From a virus, in IMG/VR virus record IMGVR_UViG_3300034134_000009, positions 1 through 62,664 of that record: 62,664 nucleotides of DNA, one strand, 5' to 3'. A program made the translations under genes and the position numbers. The notes beneath the pieces were generated by a model that was given only the letters and a program-made list of their open reading frames with translations, had not been told where the DNA came from and searched no databases. Every line of letters begins with the position of its first letter. The first letter of the stretch is position 1. Shown here one piece after another: positions 54,025 through 61,325 of the stretch.

Positions 54025-54076
54025 ACCCCAATACTAACCGGTTCCGGTTAACTGTCAAGGGTGTCGAGTGTGACAA
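54025..54076 (-). promoter_or_regulatory. operator-promoter copy P5 (leaderless) with 18-bp upstream extension
   Basis: 54023..54076 is identical to 55683..55736 (54 bp), including gggtgtcgagtgtgacaa. Confidence 0.7.
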
Positions 54077-55684: not shown

Positions 55685-55736
55685 ACCCCAATACTAACCG
55701 GTTCCGGTTAACTGTCAAGGGTGTCGAGTGTGACAA
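55685..55736 (-). promoter_or_regulatory. operator-promoter copy P6 with 18-bp upstream extension
   Basis: Identical to P5. Overlaps the last codons of 55708..56031. About 40-nt leader to 55641. Confidence 0.7.
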
Positions 55737-56031
55737 CCCCCGGCGAAGCGTTGTGCTCCGCCAACGCCCGCCGCACCGACGCCTCCGACACCCGCCGATG
55801 CCCCTGCAACACCCGACCCAGACTGTCCACCGACTTCGCCCCCCACGTCTTCTTCCGCCGCGACACCAACACCTCCTGATCCGCAAGCCGGCGAACCGTC
55901 GACGGCGACGCACCCAAAATCTTCGCGGCCTGACCCGTCGTCAACCACACCTCATCCTCCGAGAAATTTTCGCCAGGCTCCTCGCGAACATTTCCGCCCG
56001 TCACAGCCAACTCTTCGCTTCCGTTGCTCAT
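55708..56031 (-). CDS. HTH DNA-binding protein (MerR/excisionase-like)
   Basis: 107 aa. 'WLTTGQAAKILGASPSTVRRLADQ'. Divergent from the plus arm. Confidence 0.55.
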   Translation of the reverse strand: MSNGSEELAVTGGNVREEPGENFSEDEVWLTTGQAAKILGASPSTVRRLADQEVLVSRRKKTWGAKSVDSLGRVLQGHRRVSEASVRRALAEHNASPGVVTLDTLDS

Positions 56032-56098
56032 GTCTTCCGAACCTTTCGCTTCGCATCAGGTGTGCCAAGAGTACCGAACGTGTCGTACGCTGTCTCCC

Positions 56099-56965
56099 AT
56101 GAGTCTTCGCCGACTCGTTCGCCGCCTTCGTTTCGCGAAGCCTGCGAACGAAACCCAGACCTTCGCGAAACACCCGCCCACACCTTCGCCCAGCGAAGCG
56201 AAACTCTTCGCCCGCGAAGCCCGGGTAGTTTTCGCTGTCCTTTCGCTGTCCGCCGTCACCGCCTTCGCCATCCAGGCGTGGATGACGTTCGGCTTCGCGA
56301 AAGAAGTCTGGGGGATGCCCGTCGAACTGTGCTTCGCCCTGGTCTTCGCACTCGACGTCTTCGCCGTCATGTGGATGATCCTTTCGTACTTGCTTCGCAA
56401 CACCGGATGGCCACGCTTCATCGCCTTCGTCGTCTTTCTCTTCGCGATCGGCGCGCAAGTCCTCGCCGCTGAAATGTTCGGTGCCCACCGCGGCTGGTCC
56501 GAGGAAGTCCGCTGGTTCTCCGCTGTCCCGGCCCTTCTCCTGGCGCTGTCGCAGGAAGGTGTGATCCTGTGGCGCACCTACCGGAGCCGACGGATGCTCC
56601 GCACACAGCCGCCGGCCACTGTCGCGCCGCCGGCCGTAACGCGTGAACCCCGGAAGACCACCACCACCCCGCCTGTGCCGCCCGCCCCGCGCCCGCCGGC
56701 ACCCGCAGCAACTGCGGCCCCGGCTGGCGGGAAACGCGAAACCGCCAGAGCAGAACACGACAAGGTCGCCCAGCGTGTCATCGCAGGTCAGGTGACCAAA
56801 GAGCAGGCCGCAACCGACACCGGCAAAAGCATCCGAGCCGTCGAGCTGTGGATCGCCGACTACCGGAAACGTCACCCCGCCGGCCCGCAACTCGGCACAT
56901 TCCAGCTCCCCGCCCCGACCGTGAACCCGCAGGTGAACGGCACAGCCCGACAGGAGGTGAACTAA
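56099..56965 (+). CDS. DUF2637-like polytopic membrane protein
   Basis: Four TM segments ('VVFAVLSLSAVTAFAIQAW', 'LCFALVFALDVFAVMWMI', 'FIAFVVFLFAIGAQVLA', 'FSAVPALLLALS'), a Pro-rich linker and a C-terminal HTH-like segment. Start uncertain (the track ORF starts at 56024). Confidence 0.55.
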   Translation: MSLRRLVRRLRFAKPANETQTFAKHPPTPSPSEAKLFAREARVVFAVLSLSAVTAFAIQAWMTFGFAKEVWGMPVELCFALVFALDVFAVMWMILSYLLRNTGWPRFIAFVVFLFAIGAQVLAAEMFGAHRGWSEEVRWFSAVPALLLALSQEGVILWRTYRSRRMLRTQPPATVAPPAVTREPRKTTTTPPVPPAPRPPAPAATAAPAGGKRETARAEHDKVAQRVIAGQVTKEQAATDTGKSIRAVELWIADYRKRHPAGPQLGTFQLPAPTVNPQVNGTARQEVN

Positions 56966-56968
56966 GGC

Positions 56969-59212
56969 ATGGCCCGCACCGACGTCAACGTGCGCAGGGA
57001 AACCAACCCCTCCACCCACGACGACGAGAAACGCTCCAGGAAATTCCGTGGACCGCTGTTCGTCGGGCTGCTCGTCGTGCCCGCGTTTGGCCTGCTCCTG
57101 CGCTTCATCATCTTCTGGGCACCCGAAATGCTGTGGCTCGTCGCCGGGCTCTCCCTCACCACCGGATTCATCTACGCGTCCGCCGCCGTCGCCATCGGAT
57201 ACAAGGTCAGCAAGCGGGTTCCGCTGGTCATCTGGCACGTCGCCGCCACCGGGTTCCTGTTCGGCGGGGCCCTGTACATCACAACCGTGGTGCGCTGGCC
57301 TGCGGAAACAGCGCCCTGGTATCACCGGCTACTCGCGGTCGTCAACTGGCCGGCGTGGTGGGTCATCGTCCACCTGTTCGGCGCGATCATCGTCGGCGGG
57401 TCGTGGCTGCTGTACCGCATCGACGCGTTCCGGGCCGCGACCGGCGCCGACGAGTTCAGCGGCTCCGGCCTCGACAAGCTGCTCAAGGTGCCGCTGGGAA
57501 TGAAGGTCCGCGACAACACCATCACCGCCGACGAGTTCGCCATCGAAGCCGAGATCGCCCACCCCGGCATCCCCGTCGCCCAAGTTCAAGGCGTGCTGCA
57601 GCCACTCGTCGAGCAGGCCGGCGCAATTCGCGGCCGTTCCACGATCGTGCCTGGCGACGTCGGCGGGAAGTCCCAACTTCGCCTCGTCATGAAGGACCCC
57701 CTCGATGAGTGGAAAACCTTCCCCGGACTTTCGCACCCCGGCGAAAGCTTCGCGTACCCCATCCGCACCGCGTACTACGTCGCCGGGAAGAACGGCCAGC
57801 CGCTCCCCCAGTGGTATTCCTTCGCGCAGACCCCGAACTCTTCGGTGCTGAGACCTTCGCGGCTCGCCCCGAACTTTTCGGCCCCGAACGATGCAAGCTT
57901 CGGCCGGCAGGGCGCAACCCGCGCGGGGAAGAGTGGCGACAACGCCATCGAGATCGCCGAAGTTGCTTCGCGCTGCGACGCCGGCCTGTTCCTCGTGAAC
58001 ACGGCGAAACTTTTGCAGGACATCGGCTGGGCGTTGGACTTCGCGGTCGCCGCCGCCGACACGAAACCGAAAGCTTCGGTCCTGTTCGAGGCGGTGCGAA
58101 GGATCGGCGAGTACCGGTCGAACCAGATGGGTCACCCGAAGTGGCAGGGCAGGCACCGCACATGGTCACCACTCACCTACGCCGAACTCGGGTTCATGGC
58201 GATCGTCGTCGAGGTTGACGAAGGTGACCAGGTGTTGAACTCGGCGACGGCGACGTGGCTCGCCACGAAGGGTCTGTCGCTGGGGATTTTCCTGAGCGTC
58301 ATGATTTCCCGCGCCGCCACCGACGGCATGGCCTCGACGTTGCGGTCTGCGGTCACGCAGTGGAAGGCGTTCGGGGCTGGGCAGGCGTACGACGGCGGGT
58401 TCGTGCTGTCCGACGAGACGATCGCCGCGGGCGCCGACGTGGGTTCCCTGTCGACCCGGTTCCCCGGTTCCCACTACCTCGACAAGGCGCAGGGCGTCGA
58501 CGAGACGATGTATCCGCAGCTCGCCCGGTCGTATAAGACGGAACGGGACTTCAGTGACCTGCGCCGCGCGGTCGAGGCAGCGCGGGCCGCGTTCACCCCG
58601 CCGGTGTTGACGCCGGGGGAGATCGAGGCGGCGGGCGGTGCGGAGACGCTGCGCATGTTGTCGCCGCAGACGCTGCTCGCAGCGTTTGACCAGGAAGACA
58701 CCGGGCCGGCACCTGCCGGCACGGTGACCAGCACAGAAAGGACGACCGTGGAAACTGCGATCCTGTCGACGGCCGGGGACCGGCCGGACGACACCGGTGA
58801 CCTCGAGGTGGATGCGCTGCTCGCGAAGCCCCGCGCTGACCTCAGTGACCTTGAGAAGGAGTACGGGCCGCTTCCGGCCCCGGGTGAGTCGCTTCCGGAC
58901 CGTTCGAACCCGGACCTGCCGTCGCTGGAACTGGCTTCCGGTGATGACCGGCCGTCGGTGTCGCCGGACGAGTTGACGGGGGAGGCGAACGCGGCGCTGA
59001 TCCGGATGGCTCAGCGCGGCGTGACCCGGTTCGGCAACAAGGAACTCATGGATGAGATGCGGGTGGACCCGACACCGACGCAGATGAGTCGCTGGCTGAA
59101 GGGCCTGTGTGATGACGGGAAGCATGTGGCACCGCCGGGGGTGACGGTGGAGCGGGAGCCGGGCCGGCAGGGTCGGTACGTGTTGGTGTGGCTGGCCGCT
59201 GAGGGGGTGTGA
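56969..59212 (+). CDS. FtsK/SpoIIIE (TraB-like) membrane DNA translocase
   Basis: 747 aa. N-terminal TM helices. Walker A 'GRQGATRAGKSG'. Walker B 'MAIVVEVDEGD'. Confidence 0.8.
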   Translation: MARTDVNVRRETNPSTHDDEKRSRKFRGPLFVGLLVVPAFGLLLRFIIFWAPEMLWLVAGLSLTTGFIYASAAVAIGYKVSKRVPLVIWHVAATGFLFGGALYITTVVRWPAETAPWYHRLLAVVNWPAWWVIVHLFGAIIVGGSWLLYRIDAFRAATGADEFSGSGLDKLLKVPLGMKVRDNTITADEFAIEAEIAHPGIPVAQVQGVLQPLVEQAGAIRGRSTIVPGDVGGKSQLRLVMKDPLDEWKTFPGLSHPGESFAYPIRTAYYVAGKNGQPLPQWYSFAQTPNSSVLRPSRLAPNFSAPNDASFGRQGATRAGKSGDNAIEIAEVASRCDAGLFLVNTAKLLQDIGWALDFAVAAADTKPKASVLFEAVRRIGEYRSNQMGHPKWQGRHRTWSPLTYAELGFMAIVVEVDEGDQVLNSATATWLATKGLSLGIFLSVMISRAATDGMASTLRSAVTQWKAFGAGQAYDGGFVLSDETIAAGADVGSLSTRFPGSHYLDKAQGVDETMYPQLARSYKTERDFSDLRRAVEAARAAFTPPVLTPGEIEAAGGAETLRMLSPQTLLAAFDQEDTGPAPAGTVTSTERTTVETAILSTAGDRPDDTGDLEVDALLAKPRADLSDLEKEYGPLPAPGESLPDRSNPDLPSLELASGDDRPSVSPDELTGEANAALIRMAQRGVTRFGNKELMDEMRVDPTPTQMSRWLKGLCDDGKHVAPPGVTVEREPGRQGRYVLVWLAAEGV

Positions 59213-59262
59213 CGGTACGGAGTGTGACGGTGGGGTGGATGTTGTGGGCCTGGTTTTTGCGT

Positions 59263-59400
59263 GGCCTGCAAAGAGGGCCGGACGCCTATGGGGATGAAGA
59301 TCTTTTGCAGCCTGATATGTCCGTTGCAACGTGCCTGCAATATCCGCTTTGACCGCATAAGTTTTGCGGCGCAACGACCCGCAAAGCCCTGCAATATCAC
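59263..59400. repeat. CCTGCAA(T/A)A direct repeats in an AT-richer gap
   Basis: ggcctgcaaagag (59263), gcctgcaatatcc (59333), ccctgcaatatca (59387), plus ttgcag/ttgcaa/ttgcgg units. Confidence 0.55.
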
Positions 59401-59440
59401 CTGAAAAATCACGCACCGTAACCGCAAAAGGAGGTGAACC

Positions 59441-59773
59441 ATGACCACAGCCGCCGACCAGGCACTCAACGAAGCCCGCGAAGCACACGCCGGCATGAAC
59501 GCCCGCACCAAAGCAGCCGGCGAGCTTGCACGCCACTACGCCAGCGTCATCACCCGGGACCTGGCCACAGCCCTACAGGCCGCGCACCACGACCCCGCCA
59601 CCGTCAACGCCCGGACCGCGCGACTCTGCCGCATCGCTGGCAGCCTCGACGCCCGACTGAACGAGGTCGAAACCCTGGTGTCAGCGTTCGGCACCGCTGT
59701 TTCCCAGGCCGAAGCCGACCTCGGCGAGAACCGCGCACGCCAGGCATCCCACGGCCCTACCCTCGACATCTGA
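59441..59773 (+). CDS. small helical protein ending ...GPTLDI
   Basis: 110 aa. aaaggagg RBS. Confidence 0.6.
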   Translation: MTTAADQALNEAREAHAGMNARTKAAGELARHYASVITRDLATALQAAHHDPATVNARTARLCRIAGSLDARLNEVETLVSAFGTAVSQAEADLGENRARQASHGPTLDI

Positions 59774-59810
59774 CCGCACGCCGACACCACCAACCGAAAG
59801 AAGACAGACC

Positions 59811-60182
59811 ATGCCGCAGATGCCGCCCTCCATCGACGTCACCAACGACACCACCATGAAGGCATTCGCTGACGCCTACCGGGGTGCCGCGTTCCAGGGA
59901 GCCGACTTCCTCGCCACCACCGCCACCTACCTGCACCCCCGAATGGTCAACACCCTCCGGAAGTACGGCCTGGACGGCACCAACCGGTTCGGGTACGGCT
60001 CCGACGCCATCAAGTCCGCGAACAAGGTCGTCAACCTGCTGAAGCGGGCCGCCGAACACCTCGTGGACTCCGGCCAGTGCGTGGGCTACGCCTACCAGGC
60101 ATTCATGTCGGAAGTGTGGGAGCCCGCCCAGCGTGCCAAGGCTGAGCAGAAGAACCACGCACAGTCGACCCTGGACGTGTGA
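59811..60182 (+). CDS. small protein ending ...STLDV
   Basis: 123-aa ORF. Confidence 0.6.
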   Translation: MPQMPPSIDVTNDTTMKAFADAYRGAAFQGADFLATTATYLHPRMVNTLRKYGLDGTNRFGYGSDAIKSANKVVNLLKRAAEHLVDSGQCVGYAYQAFMSEVWEPAQRAKAEQKNHAQSTLDV

Positions 60183-60186
60183 CGAC

Positions 60187-60507
60187 ATGACGAACCTCGG
60201 ACTGGAAACCCTCGAAAAGATCGTCGCGAAGGCGGAGCACGACATCCGCCACGTCCGGATGGCCGTCGTCGACAACGGTCCCGAGTTCAACGCCGCTGTC
60301 GTTGACGCGCACACCGCAGCGGGGCAGGGATTCGGGGCCGGCACACAAGGGGCCCGCGTTCAGCACCTCTCCGCCCGGGCCGCGCAGTCCCTGATCGACG
60401 CGGAACAGTTGCTGGCCGCACTGAAACGCGAACTGATGAAGACGGCCGATGTGGTCGACAACGCGCGGGCCCGGGAGCGTTCCTGGGGCCCGACACTGGA
60501 CATCTGA
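60187..60507 (+). CDS. small helical protein ending ...GPTLDI
   Basis: ATG at residue 19 of track ORF 60133..60507, 5 nt after the upstream stop. Confidence 0.55.
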   Translation: MTNLGLETLEKIVAKAEHDIRHVRMAVVDNGPEFNAAVVDAHTAAGQGFGAGTQGARVQHLSARAAQSLIDAEQLLAALKRELMKTADVVDNARARERSWGPTLDI

Positions 60508-60525: not shown

Positions 60526-60909
60526 GTGTTCGACACTCAGGGGCGGGCCGACCGTCGGCGGCGCGACAGGGAACAGCAGCGCGCCGCCGCGAACCGGCGT
60601 ATCGGCCACGACATGGCGTATTGGATCGTTGCGGCTCCGATGATCTGCTGGGGCATTGCCGCCCTGGCCGTCGCGGTGGCTGTGCTGTGGGCGTGGACGT
60701 ACGTTCCGCACGAGAACATCGCCCGCTACCTCCTCGGTGCCGCCCTCATCCTGTGCGGAGTGTGGGCGGCCCGGAACCTGATCAGCGACACGCCGTCGGC
60801 CCGGGTCGCCGCGCGGGCGTCGGGTGTGACCCGCAACGGATGGCACCCGGTCGGTGTCGCCGGGCTGGTGTTGCTGGCCGCAGCGTTCGTGGTGTGGCGG
60901 ACCCTGTGA
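60526..60909 (+). CDS. membrane protein (3-4 TM)
   Basis: 127 aa. 'YWIVAAPMICWGIAALAVAVAVLWAW', 'LLGAALILCGVWAA', 'VGVAGLVLLAAAFVVW'. Confidence 0.55.
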   Translation: MFDTQGRADRRRRDREQQRAAANRRIGHDMAYWIVAAPMICWGIAALAVAVAVLWAWTYVPHENIARYLLGAALILCGVWAARNLISDTPSARVAARASGVTRNGWHPVGVAGLVLLAAAFVVWRTL

Positions 60910-61325
60910 CCGTCATCGTGGTGATCGCGGCGCTGTGGCTGACCGGGGCGCTGATCGCCCGAGCGTTCCGGTACCGGCCACGCCCCGCCCCCGTCATGGC
61001 ACCGTCCACGCGGCGCCGGATCCGGGCGAACATGCCCCACGACCTGTACCGGTACGAACACGTCGACCGGCCCGGCCTGCCGTGGTACATCGGCATCAGC
61101 GTCGAGCCGCTGGCCCGGCACCGCCGGCACGGCCGCGACGAAAAGGACCGCTGGTGGTACACCCAGTCCACCGGCGAAATGATCGTCATCGCCCGATTCC
61201 CGAACCGGGCGCAAGCCCTCGCTGCGGAACGTGCCGCCATCCAGTCGGCGGTCCGGCACCGCATCCCACTCGCGAACACGCAGCATGTGCCGTCCTGGCA
61301 TCGTCTGCGCACCACGACCCGCTGA
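60906..61325 (+). CDS. N-terminally anchored GIY-YIG-like protein
   Basis: GTGA overlap start. TM 'VIVVIAALWLTGALIA'. 'LYRYEH...LPWYIGIS...R..H...E' loosely fits GIY-YIG. Confidence 0.4.
   Translation: MTVIVVIAALWLTGALIARAFRYRPRPAPVMAPSTRRRIRANMPHDLYRYEHVDRPGLPWYIGISVEPLARHRRHGRDEKDRWWYTQSTGEMIVIARFPNRAQALAAERAAIQSAVRHRIPLANTQHVPSWHRLRTTTR

Follow-up and report, generated by a model that had tools for sequence, protein, structure and literature searches.

To our knowledge, only mycelial actinomycetes conjugate double-stranded DNA by means of a single FtsK-like pump, and we know of no mechanism for the small proteins encoded around traB, including TraA, which has been known since 1991. In the Streptomyces traA-traB(-clt) plasmids (pSN22, pJV1 and pWTY27; NCBIfam models NF041213 for TraA and NF041214 for TraB), the translocase is FtsK-like, anchored in the membrane and closed by a winged helix at its C-terminus; it is encoded next to a small TraA-type helical protein, and a repeat array follows its gene. 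The clt locus of pWTY27 adjoins the traB-type translocase gene (PMC3583192), a layout that the same paper also reviews for pJV1, and TraB of pSVH1 binds repeated 8-bp motifs (PMC4447253). Here we report that a module with the same translocase architecture, repeat array and neighbouring TraA-type protein is present in a complete 62.7-kb phage with terminal repeats, IMG/VR record IMGVR_UViG_3300034134_000009 (62,664 bp, GC ~68%, direct terminal repeats of 127 bp; the whole record is hereafter called the window), whose host group is soil actinomycetes, and that three small proteins encoded downstream of the translocase gene, A, B and C, share the C-terminal peptide TLD[IV]. Judging from the sequences, we consider the chances about even that this common tail is a docking peptide for the TraB-like pump, and that A, B and C serve as accessory subunits in a DNA-transfer module of plasmid type carried by the phage.

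The three genes lie in a row on the plus strand: ORF (open reading frame) A at 59441-59773 (110 aa), ORF B at 59811-60182 (123 aa) and ORF C at 60187-60507 (106 aa). The C-terminus of A reads ...ENRARQASHGPTLDI (tail ...RARQASHGPTLDI, final residues HGPTLDI), the tail of B reads ...AKAEQKNHAQSTLDV (C-terminus NHAQSTLDV) and that of C ...RARERSWGPTLDI (C-terminus RERSWGPTLDI). The final hexapeptides are thus GPTLDI, QSTLDV and GPTLDI, and the last four residues are encoded at 59759-59770 (TLDI, A), 60168-60179 (TLDV, B) and 60493-60504 (TLDI, C). Coordinates, lengths and C-termini agree with the first-pass annotation, made from the sequence alone, which had pointed out the three neighbours and their common C-terminal peptide. 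Its statement that they lie immediately downstream of the ATPase gene has to be corrected, since a repeat-rich, non-coding gap of 228 bp (59213-59440) separates the two. The three ORFs look like real genes because their third-position GC (0.79-0.90) exceeds that of the overlapping antisense shadow ORFs (0.65-0.68); a strong Shine-Dalgarno sequence precedes A, and C starts 4 nt past the stop codon of B.

The common ending is rare in the genome. Among the 2151 stop-to-stop ORFs in the six frames of the whole genome, an LD[IVLM] ending is found in A, B and C only, and the more general hydrophobic-x-hydrophobic ending occurs in 13 of the 607 ORFs of at least 60 aa, a background of ~2%; these two counts rule out a chance origin. 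The identical GPTLDI of A and C is written with three synonymous differences in six codons (CCT/CCG, ACC/ACA and CTC/CTG), which argues that the tail is under selection at the protein level and disfavours recent gene conversion. Little of A can be aligned with C except for the last ~39 residues (44% identity over 39 aa, E 7e-4). Separately, two minus-strand ORFs of this genome end in VTLDTLDS (55708-55731 and 54048-54071), and their 3' ends enter the repeated early promoter TTGACAGTTAACCGGAACCGGTTAGTAT. These endings are a DNA-level repeat of this six-copy promoter, which mimics the common protein tail and is unrelated to A, B and C.

We compared the three proteins with those of related loci that were fetched with a profile of the ATPase, two useful ones coming from viral contigs and seven from metagenomes. 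Downstream of the ATPase gene and the gap, all but L006, whose contig ends after one A/C-type gene, carry one B-type gene (30-58% identity to B), which is followed or flanked by zero to three fast-diverging genes of ~110 codons resembling A and C; some related phages (L004, L008) have a single hairpin gene only. The AlphaFold2 model of B (pLDDT 82.6) is an antiparallel helical hairpin with helices at 13-51 and 66-114 and a conserved loop, GLDGTNRFGYGS, and its tail (115-123) is modelled with low confidence (pLDDT averaging ~50 in the final residues), which is usual for a linear motif. A Foldseek search with this model returned generic hairpins only. Against the TraA model NF041213, B scores 13.8 bits (E 0.046), and 9 of 45 B-family members match it, the best with E 2e-4 and all under the 80-bit cut-off. 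When the B family (43 members including B) was aligned by hhalign with 10 plasmid TraA proteins, the match had a probability of 95.6% (E 1.2e-8) over 102 columns and covered both helices; by this profile-profile match B is assigned as a remote homologue of Streptomyces plasmid TraA.

A and C evolve faster. Neither matches NF041213, no family was found for either in Pfam, PHROG or NCBIfam, and a word-based protein search with A returned only A itself. A profile built from eleven A/C-type proteins, however, recovered 96 representatives in 1.84 billion proteins, and A scores 105 bits against the A/C family profile. Because a deep alignment of the A/C family and the B family match along their whole length in collinear order (hhalign 82.7%, E 9.5e-6, 107 columns), A and C probably form a faster-evolving family of distant paralogues of B; a shallow A/C alignment gave no direct match to plasmid TraA. 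The hairpin bodies of the A/C relatives share 11-26% identity, and the A/C and B bodies have diverged to 11-27%. The suggestion that the small proteins are helical therefore stands for B on the basis of its modelled hairpin, and for A and C only through their collinear alignment to B.

Among the relatives, what is kept is the class of the tail, not its letters. Literal TLD[IV] occurs in none of them and is confined to this phage, so that the conservation proposed as a check in the first-pass annotation holds for the motif class alone. In this class helix 2 ends in basic residues (A-[KR]-R-...), and three to five small residues lead from there to a hydrophobic-x-hydrophobic triplet and the stop codon. 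The hydrophobic-x-hydrophobic end is present in 38 of 42 B relatives (for example TLKV, TLNV, SYTV, SYDI and RIKV) and in 60 of 92 A/C relatives, 21 more of which end in [KRH][LI]G(x); overall the pattern is kept in 98/134 relatives, compared with 13/607 background ORFs. Counting back from the last residue as position 0, which is mostly V or I across the relatives, 38/42 B relatives carry L, Y, I or M at -2, where 82/92 of the A/C relatives carry L, Y or I. Such a pattern of evolution, a conserved and selected short motif on otherwise diverged neighbours, fits the docking or recognition peptide that had been proposed for the tail.

The phage hairpins share this ending with plasmid TraA, in which a basic stretch is followed by a hydrophobic-x-hydrophobic motif within 0-3 residues of the end, as in PFKF (pSN22), M-x-W-xxQ (six plasmids), FDIKG and FDLGS. 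From these plasmid endings we judge the motif to be ancient, yet not always placed at the very end. Among plasmids, the phage ATPase is matched best by a protein of the Amycolatopsis plasmid NZ_CP108429, and the gene directly upstream of that match encodes an unannotated 111-aa TraA-family protein (L016:4234-4569; NF041213 E 2.4e-16). Because this protein ends in ...KRNFDLGS, the traA-traB pairing and the tail motif reach beyond Streptomyces.

These comparisons bear on the simplest explanation, that the tail has no function and is mere inheritance among tandem paralogues or a DNA element placed where the genes end. The probable distant paralogy of A/C and B would favour it, as would the fact that another TLD ending in this genome is a promoter repeat. 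It leaves unexplained why the tail class persists in about 130 proteins whose bodies have drifted to 11-27% identity. A DNA-level cause such as gene conversion, a promoter or a terminator was rejected on the codon differences between A and C, on the differing tail words of the relatives and on a promoter and terminator prediction that was empty both at the ends of the A, B and C genes and between the traB-like gene and them. The explanation is already largely refuted by the conservation statistics, and we regard it as highly improbable.

Tails of different hairpins also match within a phage. Same-phage sets are TLDV/TLDI/TLDI (here), TLKV/RLKI, SYTV/TYRV and RIKV/RIRV/SLRL; B-type and A/C-type tails resemble each other more within a genome than across genomes, with the observed score found in only 4 of 720 genome permutations. 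This is as expected if all hairpins of a phage bind one, slightly phage-specific partner. It would also be expected if the tails served to assemble the hairpins themselves, the tail of one subunit lying in a groove of the next to build A-B-C hetero-oligomers or filaments, the common groove then being on the hairpins. The proteins are probable paralogues of one architecture, Orf140 of pSVH1, a small soluble protein encoded beside TraB, forms higher oligomers with itself (PMC4447253), and phages with a single hairpin gene (L004, L008) could still build a homo-oligomer that works. On the other hand, a conserved groove is hard to see in A/C bodies that are 11-26% identical, and the covariation with the ATPase described below would have no explanation. 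We consider such self-assembly unlikely, and docking on the pump encoded upstream remains our preferred reading.

This pump, encoded at 56969-59212 on the plus strand (747 aa), was identified as a TraB/FtsK-type, membrane-anchored double-stranded DNA translocase by hidden Markov model (HMM) searches, tblastn, AlphaFold2 and Foldseek. It has a single P-loop domain with a Walker A motif GATRAGKSG at about 315-323 and a Walker B motif VDEGD at 416-420, both invariant in 41 aligned sequences (the window protein and 40 homologues). Its residues 230-720 match NCBIfam NF041214 (plasmid_TraB) with 129.9 bits (E 1.1e-37), a score that does not reach the equivalog cut-off of 800 bits, and in tblastn it is 24-29% identical to TraB of Streptomyces and Amycolatopsis plasmids; by these scores it is a clear TraB relative, not an equivalog. 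Pfam and a search of PDB sequences with the translocase profile gave no match. In the AlphaFold2 model (pLDDT 81) the N-terminus forms four to five membrane helices (19-156), followed by a beta-rich domain (179-283), a RecA-type core (311-521), a conserved short helix (529-539), a disordered linker and, at the C-terminus (666-741), a winged helix of three helices and a beta hairpin. With this model Foldseek placed FtsK motor domains first (6t8b, E 5e-12), then EssC/EccC and the coupling protein TcpA, and the matches include the EccC-signal peptide complex 4n1a. We found 58 homologues of the translocase (37-61% identity); the metagenomic contigs that carry them reach 85 kb, and many measure 60-70 kb. 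Searches of phage and plasmid collections with the DNA and protein of the region and with the ATPase found nothing close, searches of viral contigs with single ATPase sequences (that of the window and the homologue P0003) found no relatives, and none of the module were found in prokaryote genomes, including prophages.

The gap behind the translocase gene (59213-59440) has a GC content of 0.55 and contains 8 of the 42 YGCAAW sites of the whole genome, standing in both orientations; CCTGCAATATC occurs twice in it. A gap of 200-257 bp is found at the same place in 9/9 related loci (among them L003:8170-8379, L004:2746-2964, L006:3555-3754, L007:2547-2767, L008:7221-7450, L009:1744-1949, L010:7245-7501 and L013:1320-1562), most with an evident short repeat word of its own: CGGAAAGTC, CTGGAAC/TTGGAAG, TGGAAGC (up to ~15 times), CAGGAAC (~10 times) or TGCAACG/CGCAATTG. 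By its position after the translocase gene, in a traB-type layout, the gap is a predicted clt-like locus, and the differing repeat words fit a co-evolution with the winged helix of the pump. From the TraB and FtsK matches, the winged helix and this clt-like layout we assign the neighbouring ATPase to the TraB-type DNA pumps and not to the ATPases of type VII secretion.

This assignment speaks against the frame in which the first-pass annotation had set the tail, namely the recognition of C-terminal tails of small helical substrates by FtsK/SpoIIIE-family ATPases in type VII secretion. If the hairpins were exported, the tail would be a secretion signal read by the ATPase, as that of EsxB is read by EccC. 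They are indeed helical hairpins of ~100 aa whose C-terminal tail is flexible, and the fold matches of the ATPase extend to EssC and EccC, the peptide complex 4n1a among them. A PDB profile search with the A/C family returned EsxA at E ~0.01 amid coiled-coil noise, and EsxA chains came up in the structure and profile searches only at levels short of significance. WXG100 models gave similarly weak matches, to 2 of 86 A/C relatives at E ~0.05 and, for TIGR03930, to 1 of 11 at E 0.021. The WXG100 HMMs (PF06013 and TIGR03930) do not match A, B or C themselves, and inspection of the three sequences revealed neither a W-x-G loop nor a YxxxD/E motif after helix 2, the sole WG of C lying in its tail SWGPTLDI. 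B, moreover, aligns to TraA, and on all of these tests a WXG100 identity of the three proteins was rejected. Family searches among the neighbouring genes found no other core gene of a type VII secretion system, the single P-loop domain of the ATPase is unlike the several of EccC/EssC, and no indication of secretion emerged from the analyses of the ATPase, the hairpins or the neighbouring genes. The system nonetheless resembles EsxB-EccC (4n1a) in one respect: a flexible C-terminal peptide of a small hairpin binds an FtsK-family P-loop domain, as shown there and proposed here. It differs in that the ATPase has one motor where EccC has three and carries a winged helix for DNA binding, and in that an array of DNA repeats is present; its best sequence and fold matches are to TraB and FtsK DNA pumps. 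Export of the hairpins is, in our view, distinctly unlikely.

The preferred reading, docking on the pump, draws support from covariation between tail and translocase, a link that had earlier been called purely hypothetical and that now has statistical support. We analysed 19 ATPase-B pairs, six of them taken directly from loci (the window, P0007, P0018, P0024, P0038 and P0051) and the rest paired indirectly, through equal lengths of their longest contigs; where both kinds of pairing could be compared (P0007, P0018 and P0024), they agreed. The charge at tail position -1 is complementary to the charge at ATPase residue 533 (r = -0.80): D/E tails go with R/K at 533 in 5/5 cases and K tails with E/Q in 5/5. 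It also covaries with residue 536 (r = +0.82), which is Glu in 14/14 non-Lys lineages and Ser, Thr or Leu in all Lys lineages. In max-statistic permutations over all ATPase columns, which ignore phylogeny, such values were reached in 1/300 (533) and 0/300 (536). The Lys state of the tail has four separate origins on the ATPase tree, and column 536 alone is invariant outside the four Lys lineages and altered in all four; any such perfect column was obtained with 28 of the 3060 choices of four lineages. In a clade with Gly tails (LDGA, KLG), Ala533 is found in 6/6 ATPases, with tails known for three (P0007, L009 and L011). The choice of Leu or Tyr at position -2 carries no power for covariation because it is clade-specific and represents a single event.

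Residues 533 and 536 lie in a helix (529-541, encoded at 58553-58591 on the plus strand) at the end of the motor domain, which we propose as the docking surface. In the window it reads DLRRAVEAARAAFTP, written DLR-R533-AV-E536-AARAAFTP, and the segment is near-invariant (DLR-x-AV-x-AARATFTP) in 61 homologues, in which only 533 and 536 vary. The two residues switch jointly between R/K..E, E/Q..L/S/T and A..I/V/D/E states. In the model they are one turn apart on one face of a helix predicted with high confidence (pLDDT 97-98 for 529-539).

Several points weigh against docking on the pump. The charge rule is broken by the A/C-type tail of L010, TYRV, in which Arg at -1 meets Lys at residue 533; the combination of Asn at -1 and Glu533 in L006 is neutral to the rule. 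The 19 pairs represent four independent events, most pairs are indirect, and 533 and 536 covary with each other, so that both could track something else. Since other residues can follow the motif in plasmids, a free carboxylate cannot be universally required. Finally, the small translocase neighbours of pSVH1 and pWTY27 are dispensable for transfer in the laboratory (PMC4447253, PMC3583192). As precedents in favour, small proteins encoded by pSVH1 do bind TraB in two-hybrid assays (PMC4447253), and the EccC-EsxB complex offers a structural example from the same ATPase superfamily. Because the sample is small and the permutations ignore phylogeny, binding to the ATPase is kept as the leading hypothesis.

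If the covariation were an artefact of the small sample or of phylogeny, as its four independent events and one exception might suggest, the tail could dock on a different common partner, such as a PDZ-type or tail-specific protease of the host, a ClpX-type unfoldase, the sliding clamp or a membrane protein of the module (56024-56965 or 60526-60909). A C-terminal hydrophobic-x-hydrophobic sequence is the generic pattern of class II PDZ ligands. The hexapeptide QSTLDV of B also fits the form Q-x-x-L-x-hydrophobic, which we take to be that of clamp-binding motifs; the Gln, however, is not conserved in the family. The second of these membrane proteins, encoded at 60526-60909 on the plus strand (127 aa), is small, is as conserved in the module as B and ends the small-gene block; its relatives close the block in the eight related loci that reach that far, with BLASTP identities of 35-56% among loci. 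No column of this protein is charge-complementary to the tail, the comparison resting on only 5 informative loci. A conserved pocket of a host protein, for its part, would explain neither the difference of tails between phages and their match within one phage nor a residue of the phage ATPase that switches charge with the tail. A different partner is thus possible though rather unlikely. Compared with class II PDZ ligands, the tails show the same free-C-terminus pattern, and their variable middle residue fits a strand-like binding that directs alternate side chains to the pocket; they differ in that the residues with which they covary belong to a helix in a P-loop ATPase and in that the plasmid relatives carry 2-3 extra residues after the motif.

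Returning to the pump, docking might work as follows. Each hairpin would be an antiparallel helical protein of ~11-13 kDa, as modelled for B and expected for A and C, whose second helix ends in basic residues (RA[RK]...) and is followed by a G/S/P linker of 3-5 residues and the short linear docking motif T-L-D-[I/V]. A conserved pocket of one common partner would take up the side chains of Leu(-2) and Ile/Val(0), and residue -1, Asp in this phage, would sit at the rim of the pocket and set the specificity. The most likely partner would be the TraB/FtsK-type translocase encoded upstream and the site would lie beside helix 529-541, with Asp(-1) facing Arg533; phages whose tails carry Lys at -1 have Glu or Gln at 533 and have lost the Glu at 536. 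Several different hairpins would share one site on the pump, with six sites per hexamer, and could regulate the pump or link it to membrane partners instead of being its cargo. What the data show are the motif and its conservation, the matching of tails within a phage, the homologies and the covariation; that the tail binds, where it binds and what docking brings about are what we infer.

The phage module departs from the Streptomyces plasmids in several ways. Its TraA-like genes lie downstream of traB and the array, whereas plasmid traA lies directly upstream in 9 of the 10 plasmid loci fetched, where the annotation places traB or a long unnamed ORF right after it. It has three hairpin genes, two of them of the faster-evolving family, it belongs to a tailed phage with terminal repeats and has no GntR-type TraR neighbour, and its identity to the plasmid proteins is low, with both HMM scores far under the equivalog cut-offs. 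Plasmid-type modules in phages have been foreshadowed: the plasmid-phage pZL12, cited in PMC3583192, belongs with the phage-borne TraB/clt modules, and SpdB2 homologues occur in actinophages (PMC4447253). With these modules the present one shares the plasmid-type pump and the repeat array, and presumably the use of moving phage DNA between hyphal compartments or cells. In the literature searched on such phage modules we found no shared C-terminal motif on small proteins and no covariation with a pump, and in that searched on plasmid TraA we found neither a function nor a tail motif described. What is new here is therefore the C-terminal motif, its matching within a phage and its covariation with the pump.

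Two further genes flank the module. Directly upstream of the translocase gene, the ORF at 56024-56965 on the plus strand encodes a multi-pass membrane protein with a Pro-rich linker, for which no family was found in Pfam or NCBIfam; it is a possible Spd-like partner of the translocase. After the membrane protein at 60526-60909, the segment 60906-61325 (in the frame of an ORF at 60621-61325) has a GIY-YIG-like look by eye (...LYRYEHVDRPGLPWYIGIS...), family searches with it gave no match, and its relatives in other loci end in ...GEPIVNDHHNP....

In its most general form, the proposal would be that TraB-type pumps of actinomycete plasmids and phages are controlled through the site beside helix 529-541 by co-evolving hairpin tails, with a one-residue charge code (Asp/Arg533, Lys/Glu533) that keeps the hairpins specific to their pump; we put this forward tentatively, as more doubtful than the docking itself. 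If true, TraA would gain a concrete role, and FtsK-family DNA pumps and type VII ATPases would share a mode of switching in which small helical hairpins act through their tails. The sharing of one pump by several accessory proteins would then be explained, as would the way in which related elements in one host could avoid cross-talk. The rule relating 533 and 536 to the tail can be checked on dozens of metagenomic phages, and the role of TraA becomes directly testable. The module described here strengthens the picture that soil actinophages keep a working plasmid-type module for the spread of DNA.

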